From: a plasmid
Sequence record: NZ_CP034394.1
DNA: 42,977 bases
Strand: one strand, 5' to 3'
A program made the position numbers and the translations under genes. Positions 26,666 to 42,847 of the stretch are shown here, in pieces (within the stretch, counting starts at the first letter, position 1; each line of letters starts with the position of its first letter). The notes under the pieces are model-generated. The model did no database searches. It was not told where the DNA came from and was given only the letters and a program-made list of their open reading frames with translations.

Positions 26666-26669
<4 letters not shown>
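26232..26669 (-). CDS. Hypothetical protein with an N-terminal Cys/His cluster (CAAYGCPC…WYCTYH).
   Basis: ATGA overlap with the replication gene stop. Confidence 0.45.
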
Positions 26670-27822
<1,153 letters not shown>

Positions 27823-27826
<4 letters not shown>

Positions 27827-28896
27827 GCTGCTACCTGTACTGTGGCCAGAAGCGGTGCGTCTGCCTGGATCCGTCGGCGCGCCATTTCTGCGTATTGAGG
27901 GTTGAGCTCGATGCCGATGCAATGACGCTGCAACTGATCGGAGGCCAGGCCCGTGGTGCCGGCGCCAAAAAATGGATCGAGCACCACGCCGCCAGCTGGG
28001 CAGCCTGCCTTGATGCAGATCATCGGGATCTCGAGTGGGAAGGTGGCGAAGTGCGCTTCCTTGAAAGATTGCGTGGCAATGCTCCAGACGCTGCGCTTGT
28101 TTCGCACGCTGGGCATGATGGCCATAGCCTGGTCGAAACTGCCGTTGTTCTTGGTGCCGCTGCCAGCTTCCGCCAGCTTGCGCACGCGGCCGCGCTGGCG
28201 CTGTTCGGCGTCGGTACCGTGGCCCCAACCTACCCCGCGCCCTACCGCCTTCATCGGGCCATTGGTCTTGGCGCCGCCGTTGGCGCGCTCGCTACCAATC
28301 TGGTTTTGCACATCCTGAGACAGGCGGCTATGGGTATTCGGCGATACCGGCTCGGAGATTGCATCCTGGTCGAAGAAATACCGCTCGGACTTCGTAAGCA
28401 GGAAAATGTATTCGTGGGACTTGGTGCAGCGGTCGCGCACGCTCTCCGGCATCGGGTTGGGCTTGCTCCATACGATGTCTTGGCGCACCCACCATCCCGA
28501 GTCCTGCAAGGCGATGGCCAGCCGGTGCGGCATCATCATCAGGTCCTTTGGCTTGAGGCCGGACTGCGACTTACCATGAATAGGCATACCGTTTCCATGG
28601 GTAGCCTGTTTCGGCCAGCGCGCATCATCCCGGGCCCCGCCGCCACCATGGGAATAGCTGTCGCCCATGTTGATCCAGCAGGTTCCATCGGAACGCAGCA
28701 CACGGCGCACCTCTTCAAAGACCGCCACCAGCTTGGCAATGAACTCTGCCGGCGAGGCCTCCAATCCGATCTGTCCATCCACGCCGTAATCGCGCAGTGC
28801 CCAATATGGCGGAGAGGTAACCACGCAGTGAACCGACTCATCCGGCAAAGAACGAAGGATCTCGAGCGAATCACCGACGTGAATCGTCACTGTCAT
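27823..28896 (-). CDS. DNA methyltransferase of the N4-cytosine/N6-adenine beta-class (SPPY catalytic motif, C-terminal FxGxG AdoMet motif).
   Basis: Motifs VVTSPPYW and DPFFGAGTT. The order of motif IV before motif I indicates the beta class. Confidence 0.85.
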
Positions 28897-33264: not shown

Positions 33265-34560
33265 ATGTCTCAAATCAACACGCTCGCCGATGTGAAACAA
33301 GGCGCCATGAGAAAGTCACCTGCCGAAGTGCAGGCGATGCGTCCCAAGGACCAGATCGCCTACTTCCTTGAACAAAAGAAAGGCGACATCGCCAAGATGC
33401 TGCCTGCGCACCTGAACCCGGAGCGCTTGATGAAAGTCGCGCAGATCGCGGCCACCACCACGCCGGCGCTGCTGAATTGCGACGTCCCCTCGCTGGTCGG
33501 CGCCATCGGCCAATGCGCGCAGATGGGCCTGGAACCGAACACCGTTCTAGGCCATGCCTACCTGGTCCCATTTAACACAAAGCGCAAGGACGCCAATGGG
33601 AATGAGCGCTGGGTCAACTCGGTGCAGGTCATCATCGGCTACAAGGGCCTCATCGATCTGGCCCGCCGCTCCGGCCAGATCGTCAGCATCGCGGCGCACG
33701 AAGTCTGCGAGCGCGACAAGTTCGAGCTGGTCTACGGGCTCGATGAGAAGCTGAATCACACGCCGTCGCTGGGCGAACGCGGCGCCGTCATCGGCTTCTA
33801 CGCTGTCGCCAAGCTGAAGGATGGCGGCCACTGCTGCGAGTTCATGAGCTTGCATCAGGTGCAAGAAATCATGCGCGGTACGAAGAGCAAGGGCGGCTAC
33901 GGCCCGTGGAAGGACAACTTCGTGGAAATGGGCCGCAAGACGGTAATCCGCCGCCTGGCCAAGTACCTGCCGCTCTCGATCGAATTCCAGCAGGCCGCCG
34001 CGCTCGACGGCATGGCCGAGGTCGGCCGCGATCAAGGCATGGGCACTATCGATGCAGATTTCCTGCTTCTGCCCGACGACGCCCCCGCCGTCGATCCGGA
34101 CACAGGCGAGGTGACCGGCCAGTTGTCGGCATCCGCTTCTGTGTCGACGCCGCAAGGCACCGGCCAGCGCGATCCCGCTGAATTTGATGACCAGGGCAAA
34201 CAGAACTCCCCCGCAAGTCCCCAGCAGGAAACTGGGGCAGCCCAAACCGGCACGGCAGCCGGGCCTGCTGGTGAGACCAGCCAGCAGGCAGCCCAGGGCC
34301 CGCAGCAGGGCGCCCCTGGCCAGGACCAGCAGGATGACGGTCTCTCCTACGCCAAGGTGCGCGACTCCCTCGAAAAGGCCAAGGACGGCGACGTGCTCGA
34401 CGTGGCCGCTGACCTGATCGGCCAGGTGCGTGACCCGAGCCAGCAGGAAGAGCTGCGCGCCTTCTACCGCGAACGCAAGGAAGCGCTTACCAATCCGCCG
34501 GCAGCCGCCGGCACCACCACCCGCGCAGCCAATCCGCGCCCCACCTTCACCGCTGAATAA
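33265..34560 (+). CDS. recT: RecT-family single-strand annealing protein with a long Gln/Ala/Gly/Pro-rich C-terminal tail.
   Basis: RecT core sequence (…GHAYLVPFNTKRKDANGNE…VIIGYKGLIDLARRSG…). Confidence 0.85.
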   Translation: MSQINTLADVKQGAMRKSPAEVQAMRPKDQIAYFLEQKKGDIAKMLPAHLNPERLMKVAQIAATTTPALLNCDVPSLVGAIGQCAQMGLEPNTVLGHAYLVPFNTKRKDANGNERWVNSVQVIIGYKGLIDLARRSGQIVSIAAHEVCERDKFELVYGLDEKLNHTPSLGERGAVIGFYAVAKLKDGGHCCEFMSLHQVQEIMRGTKSKGGYGPWKDNFVEMGRKTVIRRLAKYLPLSIEFQQAAALDGMAEVGRDQGMGTIDADFLLLPDDAPAVDPDTGEVTGQLSASASVSTPQGTGQRDPAEFDDQGKQNSPASPQQETGAAQTGTAAGPAGETSQQAAQGPQQGAPGQDQQDDGLSYAKVRDSLEKAKDGDVLDVAADLIGQVRDPSQQEELRAFYRERKEALTNPPAAAGTTTRAANPRPTFTAE

Positions 34561-34574
34561 GGATAAGCACCACC

Positions 34575-35195
34575 ATGCGCACCGCACTCTTCTACGACGA
34601 CGAATCCACCGGCTTCCCGCTCTTCAAGGAACCTTCCGAGGACCCGCGCCAGCCGCACATCTTCCAGATCGCCGCCGAGCTGGTCGATCTGGACACCCGC
34701 CGCACCATCGCCAGCATGAATCAGTTGATCAAGCCAGCCGGCTGGGTCATCCCGCCCGATGTTGAGGCCCTGACCGGCGTCAGCACCGAGCGCGCGGCGA
34801 TGTTTGGCCACGACGCCAAGGACGTTCTGGCGATGTTCTTCAAGATGTGGAGCATGGCGACCGAGTTCCGTGTGGCACACAACGAACAGTTCGACGCGCG
34901 CTTGGTGCGCATCGCCATCCTTCGCCACTACCAGGACAACGCCTTTGCCGACCAATGGAAGGCCGGGGCGGCGTTCTGCACTTGCACGGCCGCCACGCCC
35001 ATCGTCAACCTGCCGCCCAGCGAGAAGATGAAGGCCGCCGGCCGCAACAATCCGAAGCAGCCGAAGCTCTCCGAAGCCTACGAATTCTTCACCGGCCAGC
35101 CCCTGCGGAACGCACACGACGCGGGGGCGGACGTCGCCGCCTGCCGCCTCATCTACTTCGCGCTGCTGGATCACCTGACCAAGGCCGCGACCTGA
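34575..35195 (+). CDS. DnaQ-like 3'-5' exonuclease (DEDDh, Pol III epsilon family).
   Basis: Exo I motif FYDDESTG, Exo II motif VAHNEQFDARLV, Exo III motif NAHDAGADVAAC. Confidence 0.8.
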   Translation: MRTALFYDDESTGFPLFKEPSEDPRQPHIFQIAAELVDLDTRRTIASMNQLIKPAGWVIPPDVEALTGVSTERAAMFGHDAKDVLAMFFKMWSMATEFRVAHNEQFDARLVRIAILRHYQDNAFADQWKAGAAFCTCTAATPIVNLPPSEKMKAAGRNNPKQPKLSEAYEFFTGQPLRNAHDAGADVAACRLIYFALLDHLTKAAT

Positions 35196-35230
35196 GCGTC
35201 CACCATCACCCCGCAACTACGGAGAAACGA

Positions 35231-35914
35231 ATGTTCCAGCTCGAAACCCACATGGTAAAGATCATCAGCGTGGATCTGCGCACCGAAATCGAGGAAGGTA
35301 AGGACCCGGTCGGCGCATGCGATATCAGCATCACTACCGATGTCGCAAACGATGTGCTCAACGAATTCGCCACCGGCCTGAAGGAATCCTTCTACGTCGT
35401 GGCCGACACACCGCAACAGGACCTCATCGCCTCGGAAACCTATCTGCCCAAGCCGAAGTTCCCCGGGTTCGCCCGCTTCCCTTGGAAGGCAGATCTGGAG
35501 GGCTACACCTTCGTGGTGCATATCGGCACTGGCGGTCCCTCGGAAGTCACGATGCTGGACGTCAAGGTCAACAAGATCACGTTCAAGATCAAGGACAAGG
35601 CCATCGTGGAAATGTGCTTCATCATCCGCGGTCACGACAATCCCGGCGATATCGACAAGCTGCGCAAGCTGCTGGGCCTTGAGGTGCAGATCAGCCTGGT
35701 CCCTCCTGACAAGGCCAAGCAGCATCAGATCGAGCAAGGCAAAAAGAATCAGCGCTTGGCTCTGGAGGATCACTTCAGCGGCGGTGAGCAAACCAGCGGC
35801 ACAGGCGACGCAGACGCCGAGCACGATGCAGCCGAAGGCGGCCAGGCCGCAGACGATCCGGACTCCAGCGAGGTGGAAAAAGCCGCTGGCCAGGGCCAGT
35901 ACCAAGTCGAATAA
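35231..35914 (+). CDS. Hypothetical protein, about 227 aa, with an acidic C-terminus. The start is trimmed to MFQLETHMVKII with a GGAGA SD.
   Basis: SD at correct spacing. The upstream part of the track ORF is GC-biased overlap with the exonuclease gene. Confidence 0.5.
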   Translation: MFQLETHMVKIISVDLRTEIEEGKDPVGACDISITTDVANDVLNEFATGLKESFYVVADTPQQDLIASETYLPKPKFPGFARFPWKADLEGYTFVVHIGTGGPSEVTMLDVKVNKITFKIKDKAIVEMCFIIRGHDNPGDIDKLRKLLGLEVQISLVPPDKAKQHQIEQGKKNQRLALEDHFSGGEQTSGTGDADAEHDAAEGGQAADDPDSSEVEKAAGQGQYQVE

Positions 35915-35971
35915 CAACCGGGATGGCCGCCGCGTGCGGCCCCACCCGCCCCAATCCAAGGAAACACTGCG

Positions 35972-37765
35972 ATGAAAATCTCTCATATCCAAGTAGACAA
36001 CATCCTGGGCGTGCGCACCGTCGATATCAAGCTGCCCACGCCCGTGGCCCTGATCGCCGGCCGCAACGGTTCTGGCAAGAGCAGCATTCAGGAAGCCGTG
36101 CGCATGGCCATCAGCGGGGAGGTCGTGCGCGCCAAGCTGAAGAAGGAATACCCTGCGCTGGTGCATGCCGGTTCCAAGGCCGGCGGCGTGCTGGTGGGCC
36201 TGGACGACGGCCGCAGCTATGCATTCAACCTGCCCAAGGGTCAGGCGCAAATCTCGGATGGCTTGCCGACCGGCGCGGCCATCGGCGTCGCCCTCAACGG
36301 CCAGCGCTTCGCCGCCATGAAGGATGACGAGCGCCGCAGCTTCCTCTTCGCTGTCTCGGGCTGCAAGCTGTCCGGCGAGGAAATCAAGAAGCGCCTGCTG
36401 GGCCGCAATCTAAATCCGCAGCTGGTGGAAATGGTGATGCCGGTGCTGCGTACCGGCTTCCCGGCGGGCAAGGACTTCGCCGCCGAAGAGGCGCGTAAGA
36501 AGAAAGGCGCCTGGCAGCAGATCACAGGTGCGAACTGGGGCGGCGTGGCCAGCGAGGGCTGGGCGGCCGATAAGCCAACCGTGCCGGCCGTGGCGCACAC
36601 CACCGAGGACGTGGCCAAGCTGCGCCAGGAAATCGACCAGATCAACAAGCAGATCGGCGAGGCCCGCGCGAAGCAGCAGGCGCAGGCGCAGGCCAAGCAG
36701 CGCCGCACCGAGCTGCAGGAACTGTCCAAGAAGGCCCCGGACATCAGCGGCTACCTGAAGAAGGCCGAAGAGGAGCTGGCGCAGTACGAGCCGCAGGTCG
36801 TTGCCATGCGCCAGCGCGCTGCCGGTGGTCGCCCGCTGGGTCTGGTGCATGACCTGGCCTATGCGCTGCACGACCTGCGCGAAGTGTTTCCGGTGCCGTC
36901 CACTGGCGAGGACGACGTCCCCTACCAGGTCGCGAACGCGGCCCTGGATGCCTACGAGCATGCCCACGGCGAAATCAAGCCGGCCGGTGAAGCCGACACC
37001 GAGGCGCAGAACTCCCTGCCCGAGTACGAACGCGGCCTGGAGGTACTGAAGAACCGCGCCACGAACCTGAAGCGCGATTTCGACGCGGCGACTGGCGCCG
37101 ACCAGCGCCTGGCCGAGCTGGAAGCGCAGACCGACTTCGAGACCGACCACGGCGCCGGCGTCCAGGAACTGGAACAGCGTCTTGGCGCACTGCGCACCAG
37201 CTTGGCGAAGATGACCGAAGAGATCGAGGCTGCCGCCGGCGCGCAGCGCGACTTCGACGCGGCAGATGCGCGCACGGCAGAAGCCGCCAAGGTCCATGAC
37301 GAAGTGAAGGCCTGGCTGGCGGTGGCCGACGCCTGCGCACCGGATGGCATCCCCAGCGAGCTGCTGGCGGAAGCCCTCCTGCCCGTCAACAGCGCCCTGA
37401 CGGCGTCCGCAGCCTTCAGCGGCTGGGCGTCGGTGTACATCGATCAGGACATGGCCATCACCGCCGGCAAGCGCCCCTATGCCCTGCTGTCCGAATCCGA
37501 GCAGTGGCGCGTGGATGCCATGATCGCCCAGGCCGTGGCCCAGGTGACCGGCCTGCGCCTGCTGATGCTGGATCGCTTCGATGTGCTGGACCTGCAGGGC
37601 CGATCGGACGCCATCAACTGGCTGCACTCCCTGTCCGAGGAAGGCCATATCGAAACCGCGCTGGTCTTCGGCACGCTCAAGCAGCTGCCCGCCCAGCTCC
37701 CGCCCACCTTTACCTCGTTCTGGATCGCCAATGGCGTCATCGAGGCACTGCGGGAGGCCGCATAA
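35972..37765 (+). CDS. SMC/RecF/SbcC-like ABC-type ATPase with a coiled-coil, 597 aa.
   Basis: N-terminal Walker A (GRNGSGKSS). A long coiled-coil middle region. A C-terminal signature-like motif LSESEQ and Walker B/D-loop LLMLDRFDVLD. Confidence 0.7.
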   Translation: MKISHIQVDNILGVRTVDIKLPTPVALIAGRNGSGKSSIQEAVRMAISGEVVRAKLKKEYPALVHAGSKAGGVLVGLDDGRSYAFNLPKGQAQISDGLPTGAAIGVALNGQRFAAMKDDERRSFLFAVSGCKLSGEEIKKRLLGRNLNPQLVEMVMPVLRTGFPAGKDFAAEEARKKKGAWQQITGANWGGVASEGWAADKPTVPAVAHTTEDVAKLRQEIDQINKQIGEARAKQQAQAQAKQRRTELQELSKKAPDISGYLKKAEEELAQYEPQVVAMRQRAAGGRPLGLVHDLAYALHDLREVFPVPSTGEDDVPYQVANAALDAYEHAHGEIKPAGEADTEAQNSLPEYERGLEVLKNRATNLKRDFDAATGADQRLAELEAQTDFETDHGAGVQELEQRLGALRTSLAKMTEEIEAAAGAQRDFDAADARTAEAAKVHDEVKAWLAVADACAPDGIPSELLAEALLPVNSALTASAAFSGWASVYIDQDMAITAGKRPYALLSESEQWRVDAMIAQAVAQVTGLRLLMLDRFDVLDLQGRSDAINWLHSLSEEGHIETALVFGTLKQLPAQLPPTFTSFWIANGVIEALREAA

Positions 37766-38208
37766 TGCCGCGCGCCATCCAGTTCAAACCCTCGGCCAAG
37801 CAGGCCGCCCTGGTCAAGAACCCGCTGCCCATCCCGACCGAATGCCCGTACTGCAAGGGCACCGTCGGCCGCGTCGACAACAGCGTGATCTATGGCCGCC
37901 AGTATGGTAAATGGCCGTTCGCCTACATGTGCCAGACGCCCGGCTGCGACAGCTATGTGGGCATCCATCCGAAGACCGATATCCCGCTGGGCACCATGGC
38001 CGACAAGGCCACCCGCAACGCGCGCAAGCGCGCCAAGGCGGTGTTCTCTCCCCTGTGGGAAGACGAAGGCATGACCAAGGATCAGGCCTATGCCTGGCTG
38101 GCCAAGGAACTTGGCATCGAGGACGTGAACCACTGCCATGTCGGCTGGTTCGACATCGCACAGTGCAACCGGGTGGTGGAAGTGTGTCTGCGGAGGGTCA
38201 CCGCATGA
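37765..38208 (+). CDS. Zinc-ribbon protein (DUF3268-like), about 147 aa. The start is trimmed to MPRAIQFKPSAKQ.
   Basis: TAATG overlap with the ATPase stop. Cys pairs CPYC…C..PGC and C…C..VC. Confidence 0.5.
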   Translation: MPRAIQFKPSAKQAALVKNPLPIPTECPYCKGTVGRVDNSVIYGRQYGKWPFAYMCQTPGCDSYVGIHPKTDIPLGTMADKATRNARKRAKAVFSPLWEDEGMTKDQAYAWLAKELGIEDVNHCHVGWFDIAQCNRVVEVCLRRVTA

Positions 38209-40430
38209 AGCGCGATTCCTTCACGCTCCCCCTGGGCTTGGCATCCGAGCTGCTGATCGACAACTTCGCAGGCGGCGGCGGCGCCAGCAAAGGGATTGAA
38301 CAGGCTTTCGGGCGCCCGGTCGATGTGGCGATCAACCACGACGGCGAAGCTCTTGCCATGCATGAGGCCAATCACCCGACGACCAAGCACTACCGCGAAG
38401 ACGTCTTCACCGTTCACCCGGGCTTCGTCACCCAGCAGCAGCCCATCGGGCTGGCTTGGTTCTCGCCCGACTGCAAGCACCATAGCAAGGCCAAGGGCGG
38501 CAAGCCGCGCGAGAAGAAGATCAGGGGCCTGGCCTGGGTGTGCCTGAAGTGGGGCACGTTCCAGATGCCCCGGGCCATTGCCATCGAGAACGTGGAAGAA
38601 TTCCAGGACTGGGGGCCTCTGGACGAAGAAGGCAGCCCGATCAAGTCCGAGAAGGGCCGTACCTTCCGCGCCTTCATTGATGCCCTGACTACAGGGCTGG
38701 ATCGCAACCATCCGGATGTGCCTGAAATCTTCGAGGCGCTGGGAGCCGACTTCCCCATGGATCGCCTGTATGCCGGCCTGGGCTACAAGGTCGAATGGCG
38801 CATCCTGCGCGCCTGCGACTATGGCACCCCGACGATCCGCAAGCGCCTGTTCATCTTTGCGCGCCGCGATGGCCTGCCTATCGTCTGGCCCGAACCGACG
38901 CACGGTGACCCGAAGTCCGCTGCAGTGAAAGCGGGCAAGCTGCTGCCCTATCGCACTGCCGCCGAGTGCATCGACTGGTCAATCCCCTGCCCGTCAATCT
39001 TCGAACGCACCCGGCCACTGAAGCCCGCGACGCTGCGCCGGATCGCCAAAGGCGTGATGAAGTTCGTGGTCAACAGCAGCGATCCATTCATCGTGAAGTT
39101 TTCCGAGAACAGCACCGGCCAGCAGCTCGACGAACCGCTACACACCGTAATGGCCGGGGCGCCGCGCTTCGGTCTGGTGGTGCCATCCCTGATGCACATG
39201 ACGCACCAGGGCGCAGACCGCAATGCGCCTGCCGGCGAGCCGCTGGCGACCGTGACGGGGGCGAACCGTGGCGAGCAGGCTGTCGTCGCAGCCCACATCA
39301 CCAAGTTCCGAACCGGCAGCACCGGCAGCGCAATCGACGAGCCCCTGCACACAGTCACTGCCGGCGGCGACCCGAACCCGGATCACCAAAGCACCGGCAA
39401 CGTGATGGGCATCGTTGAGGCGAAACTTGCACCGTTCATCACCGAGCATGCCAACGCCAGCACCCAGCGCAATATGTCAGCCGATGAGCCGCTGCGCACC
39501 CAATGCGCCGAGGTGAAGGGTGGCCACTTCGCTGTCGTCTCGGCCACCCTGGTGGACGCCGCGCACGGTGAGGAATCACCGGGCGGCGTGAAGCGCTGGG
39601 GCAGCGGCGCGCACGATATCGAGACACCCATGGGCACGGTAGTGGCCAGCGGCAATAAGGCCCTGGTCTCTGCAACCCTCGTCCAGACGGGCTACGGCGA
39701 GCGGCCCGGCCAAGCGCCGCGTGCGCCGGGCTTGGACAAGCCTCTCGGCACGGTCGTGGCCGGCGGCGGCAAGCATGCGCTGGTCTCGGCCATGCTGGCC
39801 AAGCACTATGGCGGCGTGGTCGGTACCGGTGTCGATGTTCCGTTCGGCACCATAACCACTTCGGATCACCATTCGGTGGTGACTGCGAACCTGGTGCATT
39901 ACAACGCAGAGAAACGCTCCGGAGAAGTACGTGCATCGGGAATGCAGGAACCACTCAAGACCCAGACGACCGAGAACCGCCATGCCGTCGTCACGTCGCA
40001 CCTGGTGAAGCTGCGCAACAACCAATTCGGCCAGGCCGTGGATGAGCCGATGCCAACGCTGACCGCCGGTGGCGGCCACGTCGGCGAGGTCCGCGCTTTC
40101 CTGATGAAGTTCTATAGCGAGGGCGGCCAGCACCAGGGATGTGATGAACCTTTGCACACCGTCCCGACGAAGGACCGCTTCGGCCTGGTCATGGTCCACG
40201 GCGAGCAATACCAGATCGTGGATATCGGCATGCGCATGCTCACCCCGCGCGAGCTAGCGCGCGCGCAGGGCTTCCCGGACGACTATGTGCTCGATCCTGT
40301 GGTCAACGGAAAACCTCTCTCCAAGACCGCCCAGGTGCGCATGATCGGCAACAGCGTATGTCCGCCGTTGGCCCGCGCACTGCTGGCCGCCAATTTCACC
40401 CACGAACGCCAGATTGCGAGGACCGCATGA
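38205..40430 (+). CDS. DNA (cytosine-5)-methyltransferase, about 741 aa. Its variable region is expanded into about 10 tandem copies of a ~28-aa module.
   Basis: Motif I FAGGGGAS, PC-type motif IV FSPDCKH, motif VI ENVEEF, motif X TPRELARAQGFPDDYV. The repeats have consensus xDEPLxTVTAGGxxHALVSAxL. GGAGGG SD. ATGA overlap with the upstream gene. The start is trimmed to MKRDSFTLPLG. Confidence 0.85.
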   Translation: MKRDSFTLPLGLASELLIDNFAGGGGASKGIEQAFGRPVDVAINHDGEALAMHEANHPTTKHYREDVFTVHPGFVTQQQPIGLAWFSPDCKHHSKAKGGKPREKKIRGLAWVCLKWGTFQMPRAIAIENVEEFQDWGPLDEEGSPIKSEKGRTFRAFIDALTTGLDRNHPDVPEIFEALGADFPMDRLYAGLGYKVEWRILRACDYGTPTIRKRLFIFARRDGLPIVWPEPTHGDPKSAAVKAGKLLPYRTAAECIDWSIPCPSIFERTRPLKPATLRRIAKGVMKFVVNSSDPFIVKFSENSTGQQLDEPLHTVMAGAPRFGLVVPSLMHMTHQGADRNAPAGEPLATVTGANRGEQAVVAAHITKFRTGSTGSAIDEPLHTVTAGGDPNPDHQSTGNVMGIVEAKLAPFITEHANASTQRNMSADEPLRTQCAEVKGGHFAVVSATLVDAAHGEESPGGVKRWGSGAHDIETPMGTVVASGNKALVSATLVQTGYGERPGQAPRAPGLDKPLGTVVAGGGKHALVSAMLAKHYGGVVGTGVDVPFGTITTSDHHSVVTANLVHYNAEKRSGEVRASGMQEPLKTQTTENRHAVVTSHLVKLRNNQFGQAVDEPMPTLTAGGGHVGEVRAFLMKFYSEGGQHQGCDEPLHTVPTKDRFGLVMVHGEQYQIVDIGMRMLTPRELARAQGFPDDYVLDPVVNGKPLSKTAQVRMIGNSVCPPLARALLAANFTHERQIARTA

Positions 40431-40747
40431 GCGCTCAAGAAACAAATGCCGAACCAATCAAGATATTCGGCCTCCTGATGAGGCATCCCGACCAAGAGGG
40501 CCTGATCCGGAAGCACTGCTTCGGCGACTGCGGAAAGATTTCATTGGCGGGCTGCATTGATGATCCGCAGACCGGTGGCCTGGGCGTTTGCTGCGAAACC
40601 AAATGCCCCTGGCTGAAAGGCGAGATGGACCAGCCCTATGGTGAAACCATGTCCTTCGGCAAGCGGCACCACATTTACTTGCGGGCGATCACTGACTCAC
40701 CGGACCACGCTGAACCGATCTCTACGGCATCGGAGAGGCAGCCATGA
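40427..40747 (+). CDS. Hypothetical Cys-rich protein, about 106 aa (HCFGDCGK…CCETKCPW). The start is trimmed to MSAQETNAEP.
   Basis: Start overlaps the methyltransferase stop. Multiple Cys residues are consistent with metal binding. Confidence 0.45.
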   Translation: MSAQETNAEPIKIFGLLMRHPDQEGLIRKHCFGDCGKISLAGCIDDPQTGGLGVCCETKCPWLKGEMDQPYGETMSFGKRHHIYLRAITDSPDHAEPISTASERQP

Positions 40748-41457
40748 AGGAAGGTCCCATCCTGATGAACGGCGCTATGGTGCGCGCCACGCTGGCGGGC
40801 GACAAGACGAACACCAGGCGCACGCAGGGCCTGGAGTTCTTTTCCGACAACGATGCTGGAAACTGGCGCTGCGTACGCGTCTCCGGTGGCAATGCCTATT
40901 TCGTGTATGGGAACTCTCCGAAGGAGCACGTCGAGAAATGCCCCTACGGCCAGCCTGGCGACCGACTGTGGGTGCGCGAGACCTGCCGGGCAGAGGAACT
41001 GGATGACGGCAGTGATGGAGTGCGTTACGCGGCCGATGATGCATTTATCCATATCCGCGCCGGCGCGGCAGAGGCCGAGGCCTGGCACAAGCTGTTCAAC
41101 TACCGTGGCCAGCAGGGCGCGGTGGTCCCATCGATCCACATGCCGCGCTGGGCCAGCCGCATCCTGCTGGAAATTACCAGCGTGCGCGTGGAACGCCTGT
41201 GGAACATCAGCGAGCAGGATGCGCTGGCCGAGGGTATCGAGAAGAATTGGACCGGCGATCCTAGCAAGGGGCAGAACGGCTTCGGCACGGTCGGCTGGGT
41301 ACCGGACTGCGGATGGATCAACTACATGGAGGACATGGACGGCGAACCAGCGTACACGCCGCAGGACAGCTTCCGGTCCTTGTGGCAGTCCATCAACGGC
41401 CGCGACAGCTGGGCAGCCAATCCGTGGGTCTGGGTTGTTGAATTTAGGAGGATCTAA
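40744..41457 (+). CDS. Hypothetical protein, 237 aa. Its N-terminus weakly resembles ASCH/PUA-like folds (GDKTNTRR).
   Basis: ATGA overlap coupling. The domain guess is low-confidence. Confidence 0.45.
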   Translation: MKEGPILMNGAMVRATLAGDKTNTRRTQGLEFFSDNDAGNWRCVRVSGGNAYFVYGNSPKEHVEKCPYGQPGDRLWVRETCRAEELDDGSDGVRYAADDAFIHIRAGAAEAEAWHKLFNYRGQQGAVVPSIHMPRWASRILLEITSVRVERLWNISEQDALAEGIEKNWTGDPSKGQNGFGTVGWVPDCGWINYMEDMDGEPAYTPQDSFRSLWQSINGRDSWAANPWVWVVEFRRI

Positions 41458-41459
41458 TC

Positions 41460-41687
41460 ATGCAAGCAATCGCACAACCGATCACCTTGACTGAAGAAGA
41501 GGTGGTGGCCATCACCGGCTACCATCGCGCCGCCTTCCAGCTGCGCCGCCTGGAGGAAATGGGAATTCCGGCCCATCGCCGCCCCGATAATACCGTCATG
41601 GTCCTGCGCGTCTATGCCACCACCAGGCCGGCCGCCGAAGCGGCGCCGGAAAAACAAGAACCGAAACTCCGCCTGATTCGCAAATGA
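41460..41687 (+). CDS. DUF4224-like small protein, a candidate excisionase or recombination directionality factor.
   Basis: Motif LTEEEVVAITGYHRAAFQLRRLEEMGIP. It lies immediately upstream of, and overlapping, the int start. Confidence 0.5.
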   Translation: MQAIAQPITLTEEEVVAITGYHRAAFQLRRLEEMGIPAHRRPDNTVMVLRVYATTRPAAEAAPEKQEPKLRLIRK

Positions 41688-42847
41688 ACCGATCCCGCAA
41701 AACCGGCAAGGGGCTGCCCCGCCGCGTGTACCAGAAGCACGGCGCCTATTTCTTCGTGCCGGCCGAGCCTATGCTCGACCCCAAGGATGGCAAGATCAAA
41801 CGATGGATTCCACTGGCCAAGATAGCCGAGGGCGAGGCGGCCATGCTGCTGGCGCTGGGCAACCTGCTGCAAGACGACGCCCTGAACGTCGAAAGCATGC
41901 GGTACGTCTGCGCCGAGTTCAAGAAGCACAAGCTAAACCGCTATACCGACGAGACCAAGGCCACCTATGGCCGGTACCTGGACACCATCGGCGAGGCGTT
42001 CGCCGATTTCTCGGCGCGCCAGGTCACGACCAAGAGCTGGGCGCAGTTCCTGCGCCAGAACTTCAGTGCCCATCCGAACACCGCGCAGAAATACACTGCG
42101 CTGGCGCGCAAGCTCTTCAAATTCGTAATCTCAGAACTGGGCCTGCGCGAAGACAATCCCATCGACCAGATCGAGCTTGAGGACTACGAGACCACGCGCC
42201 GCCTGATCCTGCCGACCCATGAGCAGGTCCAGGCCATCCGCCAGGCCGGCATGATAAGCAAGGTGCGATCGGACACGGGCAAGGCGCTCCCCACCGCCAG
42301 CGGGCCAATGTTCGCCTGCCTGGTGGATGCAGCGTACTTGCTGTGGGCGCGCGCCATAGACGTGCGCACCCTGAAGGAATCGCAGATCGATGGCGAAATC
42401 GGCGGCTACATCCGCCTGAAGCCCTCGAAGACCCTGAAAACGAGCGGTAAATCGGTGGACATCCTGATCACGCCGGCGATCTGGGACGTGATCCAGCGCG
42501 CCCGCGCCATCAAGAAGGAATACAAGGTCCACGGCAAACCCTTGATCACGGGCTTCGTGTTCCCGACCCGGAAAGGGACTGAGTACAGCAAGAATGGATT
42601 GTTTTCGATGTGGGACCGCGCCAGGGATCGCCTGGGCATCGGCAAGGACTCGCCCCCGGAAGAGCGGATTCAATTTAGAGATTTGCGCGCGCTGGGCGCT
42701 ACTGATGCAGCTCGAACGAAGCTGCCGATAGAACAGATCCAGACCCGCCTGGCGCACACGTCGCCGCAGACATCTGAAATCTATATCAAGGAAGTGATTG
42801 CCCAGGTCTCGGAGATTGACCTCCCGCTACCCTGGCCCACAAAGTAA
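41684..42847 (+). CDS. int: Tyrosine-type site-specific recombinase (phage integrase).
   Basis: C-terminal catalytic region …FRDLRALGATD… LAHTSPQTSEIYIKE (R…H..R…Y). It lies adjacent to the tRNA and the element end. Confidence 0.9.
   Translation: MNRSRKTGKGLPRRVYQKHGAYFFVPAEPMLDPKDGKIKRWIPLAKIAEGEAAMLLALGNLLQDDALNVESMRYVCAEFKKHKLNRYTDETKATYGRYLDTIGEAFADFSARQVTTKSWAQFLRQNFSAHPNTAQKYTALARKLFKFVISELGLREDNPIDQIELEDYETTRRLILPTHEQVQAIRQAGMISKVRSDTGKALPTASGPMFACLVDAAYLLWARAIDVRTLKESQIDGEIGGYIRLKPSKTLKTSGKSVDILITPAIWDVIQRARAIKKEYKVHGKPLITGFVFPTRKGTEYSKNGLFSMWDRARDRLGIGKDSPPEERIQFRDLRALGATDAARTKLPIEQIQTRLAHTSPQTSEIYIKEVIAQVSEIDLPLPWPTK

Follow-up and report, generated by a model that had tools for sequence, protein, structure and literature searches.

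The multispecific C5-cytosine DNA methyltransferases of Bacillus phages carry several recognition domains, and work with deletions and chimeras in the Trautner laboratory reportedly assigned each of these to its target. How one catalytic core serves several modules has been a question ever since these enzymes, and we know of no solved structure of a multispecific C5 methylase. Relaxed substrate specificity has been described for the 5-methylcytosine (m5C) methylases JCM7686_0772 and JCM7686_2655 of Paracoccus aminophilus prophages (PMC3925955), and enzymes of the same kind are given for the Aeromonas phages ARM81mr (p29) and ARM81ld (p31) (Dziewit and Radlinska 2016, cited in PMC5537653). Here we describe a methylase encoded at positions 38205-40430 of the sequence record NZ_CP034394.1, whose variable region is an array of ten tandem units. 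The window, which is the whole stretch of 42,977 nt that we analysed, is filed as a "plasmid" at the National Center for Biotechnology Information (NCBI). Judging from sequence comparisons, we consider it probable that the methylase is an orphan C5-cytosine methyltransferase of a temperate Herbaspirillum phage, belonging to a large m5C family of relaxed specificity, in which the units would act as small recognition modules.

The gene runs from an ATG at 38205 to a stop codon at 40428-40430, inside a longer listed open reading frame (ORF, 37911-40430), and its product is identical to a protein annotated at NCBI as "DNA cytosine methyltransferase (plasmid)" of Herbaspirillum seropedicae. The only Pfam family in the protein is PF00145 (89.8 bits against a cut-off of 22), with a match in two pieces, one N-terminal and one C-terminal, the latter at amino acids (aa) 666-727. 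The model TIGR00675 reaches 76.8 bits, under its cut-off of 100.65, because the long array splits the match. All the motifs sought were found in the canonical order: I (FAGGG, aa 21-25), IV (PDC, aa 88-90), VI (ENV, aa 128-130), VIII (RKR, aa 212-214), IX (RMLTPRE, aa 677-683) and X (GNSV, aa 715-718, within GNSVCPP). The C5-cytosine methyltransferase that an earlier note had placed here is thus borne out by the motifs and by PF00145, with one correction, namely that TPRELARAQGFPDDY, which had been read as motif X, is motif IX. The catalytic core is modelled confidently by AlphaFold2, and the core model of a homologue with three units (P0122) matches DNMT1, MET1, M.HaeIII, M.HhaI and the structure 3g7u (Foldseek E 1e-8 to 1e-10). 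The C-terminal catalytic part of the methylase aligns with 3g7u, DNMT1 and M.HaeIII, with a predicted local distance difference test (pLDDT) of 83-93 at aa 681-730. By these signs the catalytic core is intact. The gene and the parts of it that flank the array are the following:

38205-40430, plus strand: complete coding sequence of the C5-cytosine DNA methyltransferase, 741 aa and stop codon (translation, PF00145, NCBI match).
38880-39128, plus strand: family-specific conserved segment preceding the array, aa 226-308 (WSIPCPSIFER...RPLKPATLRRIAKG...PFIVKF), with many invariant alignment columns and pLDDT 48-74.
38205-38879, plus strand: N-terminal catalytic part (aa 1-225), which holds motifs I, IV, VI and VIII (motif positions; pLDDT mostly 75-94).
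40233-40427, plus strand: C-terminal catalytic part (aa 677-741), which holds motifs IX (RMLTPRELARAQGFPDDY) and X (GNSVCPP); the best Pfam stretch is aa 666-727.

Between motif VIII and motif IX, and filling exactly the variable (target-recognition) region, are ten consecutive units (aa 309-676, nt 39129-40232), which start at aa 309, 344, 378, 427, 473, 511, 544, 581, 613 and 647. The units are diverged but share a core, [D/E]xP[LM]xT[VIL]TAGG...ALV, and a common layout, which runs from [D/E/G/Q]xP[LMF]xT through a glycine-rich turn and a hydrophobic stretch (for example ALVSATLV) to a variable tail. In the unit alignment the proline is invariant and the threonine at least 90% conserved, and the array as a whole is richer in Gly, Thr, Val and His than the remainder of the methylase. 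When a hidden Markov model (HMM) built from nine units was used to score the tenth, with 1000 shuffles of that tenth as control, every one of the ten left-out units scored well above its shuffles (13.9-31.5 bits against 6.1-11.5 for the best shuffle), which shows that the repeat is real. The approximately ten tandem diverged units of the earlier note therefore stand, each above its 1000 shuffles. Their size does not: units are 30-49 aa long, and the ~28 aa originally given would fit the conserved core alone (~22-28 aa). The repeat had also been said to be visible in the DNA, and this holds in part. The 17-mer quoted for it matches five of the ten unit starts with up to three mismatches, against 3.4 matches expected across the whole window, and no repeat at the DNA level was detected in the array by Tandem Repeats Finder; the repeat is accordingly old and shows chiefly in the protein. 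The units are:

39129-39233, plus strand: unit 1 (DEPLHTVMAGAPRFGLVVPSLMHMTHQGADRNAPA), tail type THQG.
39234-39335, plus strand: unit 2 (GEPLATVTGANRGEQAVVAAHITKFRTGSTGSAI), tail type TKFR.
39336-39482, plus strand: unit 3 (49 aa; its glycine loop contains an insertion), tail type ITEHANAS.
39483-39620, plus strand: unit 4, 46 aa (DEPLRTQCAEVKGGHFAVVSATLVDAAHGEE...).
39621-39734, plus strand: unit 5 (ETPMGTVVASGNKALVSATLVQTGYGERPGQAPRAPGL), tail type QTGYGER.
39735-39833, plus strand: unit 6 (DKPLGTVVAGGGKHALVSAMLAKHYGGVVGTGV), tail type AKHYGG.
39834-39944, plus strand: unit 7 (DVPFGTITTSDHHSVVTANLVHYNAEKRSGEVRASGM).
39945-40040, plus strand: unit 8 (QEPLKTQTTENRHAVVTSHLVKLRNNQFGQAV), tail type VKLR, part of the recurrent L-Y-Z core.
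40041-40142, plus strand: unit 9 (DEPMPTLTAGGGHVGEVRAFLMKFYSEGGQHQGC), tail type KYYG, aligning with PTLTTMGGGH...EVRAVL of M.Phi3TI (BLASTP, shuffle test).
40143-40232, plus strand: unit 10 (DEPLHTVPTKDRFGLVMVHGEQYQIVDIGM), adjoining motif IX; in the Bacillus phage enzymes it aligns with their constant element DEPAFTVNTIDRHGVA (BLASTP, shuffle test).

The closest relatives with experimental data are the enzymes of relaxed specificity mentioned above. ARM81mr_p29 and ARM81ld_p31 are exactly the ORFs matched by the methylase in tblastn, with an identity of 48.7% for phiARM81mr (95% of the query) and 41.6% for phiARM81ld; in global alignment they are 59% and 55% identical to it over aligned residues, and each has five units in the same order. 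Pyei1_p05 of the Paracoccus phage vB_PyeM_Pyei1 has eight units, QTGYGER and KYYG among them, and shares 40% identity with the methylase over aa 16-733 (E 8e-161). The link between the methylase and the P. aminophilus enzymes runs through the published identity of ~69% between the latter and Pyei1_p05 (PMC6536676).

The P. aminophilus enzymes, which were cloned by a Warsaw group, gave partial protection against 16 of 28 restriction enzymes (PMC3925955, Additional file 8). Partly protected were AGCT, GGCC, CCNGG, CCWGG, CCSGG, CCGG, GCGC, GCGCGC, CAGCTG, ACGT, CTCGAG and GCN7GC, as well as the BglI, CaiI and EcoO109I sites, while CGCG, TCGCGA, GATC, GGNNCC, CCWWGG, CTAG, CATG, GANTC, CCGCTC, ACGCGT and CCATGG were cut completely (PMC3925955). 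The published accounts speak of relaxed specificity with the modified cytosine in a CC motif (PMC5537653, PMC3925955). Such a description, together with the fact that protection is partial at every affected site, would suit a different explanation of the array, in which it forms one composite DNA-binding domain made of structural repeats (for example stacked beta hairpins), and the broad protection results from a short or degenerate target. We regard this as rather unlikely. Among the sites cut completely are two that contain CC (GGNNCC, CCATGG) and two that contain GC (CGCG, ACGCGT), whereas AGCT, ACGT and CTCGAG, which are partly protected, have no CC. Neither CC nor GC alone explains the pattern, nor does any single short motif, and the enzymes therefore would seem to have several distinct specificities. 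A connection between relaxed specificity and a variable tandem array of modules was not found in the accessible literature on these enzymes, and we found no description of the array itself in the literature on multispecific enzymes, recognition domains or repeats.

How the array behaves among relatives also bears on this question. A full-length search returned at least 8000 homologues of the methylase, and tblastn gave matches in 354 phage records, with hosts that include Gordonia, Mycobacterium, Arthrobacter, Pseudomonas, Vibrio, Aeromonas, Burkholderia, Ralstonia, Klebsiella, E. coli, Caulobacter, Myxococcus, Cellulophaga and Halobacterium; a further search adds phages of Roseburia, Acetoanaerobium and Nostoc to the family. 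In E. coli, strains with a prophage that carries a family member include CX04-CX21 and ECONIH4. Relatives with the array span phages of Proteobacteria, Actinobacteria, Myxococcus, Firmicutes and haloarchaea. When 1.84 billion cluster representatives were searched with nothing but the repeat region, 2,627 proteins matched at E <=0.001 and 1,552 at E <=1e-10. Units were counted by means of the unit HMM; where its signal was weak, the PxxT pattern was used instead. There is one weak match in the enzyme of a Cellulophaga phage (430 aa), and there are three units in that of Vibrio phage K473 (473 aa), ~5 in the enzymes of Gordonia and Mycobacterium phages, six in Myxococcus phage Mx4, ~6 (PxxT pattern) in Dcm5 of Halobacterium phage phiH and 6-8 in the enzymes of Eeyore (E. 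coli), F116 (Pseudomonas), BgManors32 (Burkholderia) and Sansa (Caulobacter). The 120 closest homologues have 5-11 units and the 148 best cluster representatives 4-13. Unit number thus ranges from 1 to 13 in the family, so that ten is near the upper end without being unique, and it correlates with protein length (r = 0.76). The array had been put forward as something unusual; it is instead a standard feature of a very large family with characterised members, and nothing exceptional. Some homologues (P0063, P0066, P0092 and P0262, 842-1206 aa) combine the array with an intein/Hint domain (PF13403, PF14890) or an HNH domain (PF13392), and with dcm5 of the haloarchaeal virus phiH (L006 583-2469) the family crosses the divide between bacteria and archaea.

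The units can be classified by their tails (THQG, TKFR, ITEHANAS, QTGYGER, AKHYGG, VKLR, KYYG and the final IVDIG that adjoins motif IX), and the order of the types is fixed, Q-F-N-x-E-H-x-L-Y-Z, with the upstream types optional and occurring in many combinations. L-Y-Z is present in most architectures, and many Vibrio phage enzymes (~470 aa) have no other units in their array. The AKHYGG type (unit 6) is kept in enzymes of E. coli, Burkholderia and Myxococcus phages, and the optional types QTGYGER and AKHYGG are both well kept across phages of Herbaspirillum, Burkholderia, E. coli, Myxococcus and Paracoccus. Among Herbaspirillum relatives with 73-89% identity, blocks of 37, 38 or 43 aa have been gained or lost at four places. 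A 43-aa block covering the last part of unit 2 and the greater part of unit 3 is missing in P0006, P0013, P0017 and P0019; another of 43 aa, across units 4-5, in P0008, P0019 and P0021; one of 38 aa at unit 5 in P0005 and P0017; and one of 37 aa across units 7-8 in P0003 (which lacks aa 558-594), P0005, P0006, P0008 and P0019. Each block is about as long as one unit, so that over a short evolutionary time the array changes by entire units. The boundaries of these indels slide inside the repeat, and the unit register is not fixed by them. Mutual information between unit heads and the flanking tails gave no boundary signal, a test that is uninformative because the unit head is too conserved.

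The recurrence of L-Y-Z and the near identity of the unit heads would fit a composite domain. That internal units come and go in many combinations, even in close relatives, is harder to accommodate, as a packed domain should tolerate less, and the conservation of unit types across phyla also goes against it. The same data touch on another explanation, that most units are inactive relics or spacer and that the enzyme has one or a few specificities, carried by L-Y-Z. Pseudo-domains in Bacillus phage methylases are said to have been described by Lange et al. in 1991, and the Vibrio phage enzymes in which L-Y-Z is the entire array fit with this idea. We nevertheless find it improbable: the conservation of the optional QTGYGER and AKHYGG types in phages of different hosts argues for selection, and enzymes of about eight units protected many unrelated sites.

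If the units are recognition modules they should resemble known ones. M.SPRI, M.Rho11sI, M.H2I and M.Phi3TI contain two to four modules with a spacing of ~28-47 aa (for example GLSPTLTTNKGEG and GVSPTLTTMGGGH), and in these Bacillus phage enzymes the modules are followed by the constant DEPAFTVNTIDRHGVA and then by motif IX. In BLASTP, unit 10 (DEPLHTVPTKDRFGLV) aligns with that constant element, and unit 9 (PTLTAGGGH...EVRAFL) with the M.Phi3TI module PTLTTMGGGH...EVRAVL. We compared aa 609-672 with the variable regions of M.Phi3TI, M.SPRI, M.Rho11sI and M.H2I after removal of motifs IX-X, setting the local score against 2000 shuffles; z was 4.8-7.8, with 0-3 shuffles as good. In M.HhaI a conserved Thr250-Leu251 and the glycine-rich recognition loop 2 precede motif IX, which we take to be the position of unit 10. 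The junction of units 5 and 6 was considered as a lookalike of the M.HhaI recognition loops; a search of solved structures with it gave no match, and the resemblance to M.HhaI is no more than a lead. A profile of the last units together with motifs IX-X, run against solved structures, aligned through motifs IX-X alone. Pfam has no family for the array and NCBIfam offers only the generic dcm model, while PHROGs 116 and 23072 cover the array with the mere label 'DNA methyltransferase'.

These observations taken together suggest the following picture. The methylase would be made from the early gene block and would methylate the phage DNA at many short sequences, thereby blunting a wide range of host restriction enzymes. 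Each unit, with its P-x-x-T-[VIL] element, its glycine-rich loop and a hydrophobic stretch resembling a beta strand, would be a small recognition module of the same kind as those of the Bacillus phage multispecific enzymes. Unit 10, adjoining motif IX, would be the constant element, and the nine units upstream would serve the one catalytic core as further recognition modules, alternative or additional. Which sequences are methylated would then depend on which units are present, and this repertoire would be adjusted through unequal recombination between units. The validation of ten units, the fixed order of types with optional members and the presence or absence of blocks among relatives all support this picture. 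In its strict form, one unit for one target, the modules would dock singly on the core and the enzyme would have approximately nine target sequences; we see this as possible but somewhat doubtful. To our knowledge, nine targets would be about twice the number of any multispecific methylase, M.BssHII having five. An antirestriction role for the methylase had been proposed before, and it is backed by the broad, partial protection measured for homologues; the array itself loses the novelty claimed for it, being standard in a family with members already characterised.

Several observations weigh against recognition by separate modules. The resemblance to Bacillus recognition domains, beyond chance for aa 609-672, is not significant for single units: the single-unit profile against the Bacillus modules gave an HMM E of 0.02-0.15 and an hhalign probability of 5%, the units being short, and found no recognition domain among solved structures, as would also be the case for a composite domain. 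The most conserved part of the unit (PxxT[VI]TAGG) is common to all, and if this is the loop that reads DNA, the units read similar sequences. The persistence of L, Y and Z also fits a single structural domain. In the AlphaFold2 models of the methylase and of the three-unit homologue P0122, with a well-modelled core, the variable region has a pLDDT of 20-40 and the array 20-30. The alignments behind them had 50 and 55 sequences, respectively, and the low values may reflect either this shallowness or a real flexibility, and decide nothing; they give no fold in support of the modules, nor do they contain a packed repeat domain, and the latter point counts against the composite domain. As to activity, protection by the Paracoccus enzymes was only partial (PMC3925955, Additional file 8), the homologue Phi2LM21_p23 was inactive in E. 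coli (PMC5537653), and the DNA of phiH, which carries a family member, had no modified dC by high-performance liquid chromatography (PMC6210493). The last two would fit the view that most units are relics.

The context of the gene is that of a phage. The window encodes a terminase large subunit, portal, tape measure and tail proteins, as well as a replication protein, RecT, an SbcC-like ATPase, a tyrosine integrase and a DUF4224 protein; with this full set of tailed-phage genes it is therefore a complete temperate tailed phage genome. The record is probably an excised or circularised temperate phage that was sequenced as a circle, and not a plasmid. The genes for the DUF4224 protein and the tyrosine integrase are at the end of the window (41460-42847, plus strand), and no tRNA gene was found in it. 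Immediately upstream of the methylase are two genes:

35972-37765, plus strand: SbcC/Rad50/SMC-like ATPase (AAA_23, SMC_N; phrog_77, SbcC-like; NCBIfam Rad50/RecF N-terminal model below cut-off).
37765-38208, plus strand: DUF3268 zinc-finger protein (PF11672, E 8e-39; phrog_1934).

The stop codon of the ATPase gene overlaps the start of the DUF3268 gene (TAATG, 37763-37767), and the stop of the latter overlaps the start of the methylase gene (ATGA, 38205-38208). These two genes close an early block (33265-38208, plus strand) that begins with RecT (33265-34560) and a 355-aa protein without family (34847-35914). Downstream of the methylase (40427-41457, plus strand) are a 106-aa Cys-rich protein without family match, whose ATG overlaps the methylase stop, and a 237-aa phrog_874 protein. 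No nuclease family was found in the neighbouring genes, as far as the profile libraries reach, and the methylase therefore looks like an orphan of the phage early region. The window contains a second methyltransferase, of the N6/N4 amino type (27823-28896, minus strand; PF01555, E 7e-49; phrog_67), which adjoins a replication gene at 26666-28228. A conserved operon of methylase, ATPase and DUF3268 gene was considered and rejected, as the upstream genes differ at other family loci, where we found a Dam-type methylase (F116 and the E. coli phage Eeyore), DUF7368 (a Gordonia phage), a helix-turn-helix protein (Mycobacterium phage Mao1) or nothing recognisable. In Eeyore (L001 3668-5002) the upstream gene is annotated as 'phosphoadenosine phosphosulfate reductase', and the N-terminal part of its product belongs to the Dam family PF05869 (E 2e-43); F116 has a D12-class adenine methylase at the same spot, so that pairs of adenine and cytosine methylases recur.

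The position of the gene next to replication and recombination functions could also be read in another way. The main role of the methylase might be the epigenetic control of phage replication, recombination or expression and not antirestriction, as the Warsaw authors suggested from the location of such genes in replication modules. This would not exclude the other explanations. The methylase gene is near those of RecT and the SbcC-like ATPase and near replication genes, homologues are placed likewise (PMC5537653), and the P. aminophilus enzymes gave no protection against R.PamI, the host's own enzyme (PMC3925955). We give this little credence as the main role: an antirestriction enzyme needs a place in the early region as well, a methylation that is broad, partial and spread over many sites makes a poor signal for regulation, and the neighbouring genes differ among family loci.

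Protection against many restriction enzymes by phage methylases bears on host range, on phage therapy and on the delivery of DNA to bacteria that are hard to transform. The Herbaspirillum methylase itself is an ordinary, large member of its family, with a number of modules near the upper end. What is put forward here is a candidate link, which ties relaxed specificity to tandem modules of the recognition type and variable in number. The family provides a natural series of 1-13 modules, in which near relatives differ from one another by a single module, and it has members in phages of E. coli and Klebsiella. The rule connecting module and target could thus be read from methylomes of the family and would give 'relaxed specificity' a structural explanation. 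If the modules are autonomous, the family would be a natural combinatorial library, reshuffled by unequal recombination to track host restriction.

Compared with known systems, the methylase is closest to the P. aminophilus, ARM81 and Pyei1 type, with which it shares full-length homology (40-49% identity in tblastn/blastp); like them, it is encoded by an orphan gene that sits among the early or replication genes of a temperate phage. The ARM81 and Pyei1 enzymes have the same tandem array with the unit types in the same order, the difference being in unit number, ten in the Herbaspirillum methylase against five in the ARM81 enzymes and eight in Pyei1_p05. The multispecific enzymes of Bacillus phages are alike in having one catalytic core and several short tandem modules between motifs VIII and IX, each module carrying a T-[LIV] element and, after it, a stretch rich in glycine, and the spacing of the modules is comparable (~28-47 aa against 32-49 aa). 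They belong, however, to another subfamily, with only ~25-30% identity over short stretches around motifs VIII-X, and have two to four T-[LIV] modules instead of ten. M.HhaI, M.HaeIII and 3g7u (from prophage CP-933R) share the catalytic fold and the order of the motifs, but their variable region is a single domain, in which no sequence match to the units was found.

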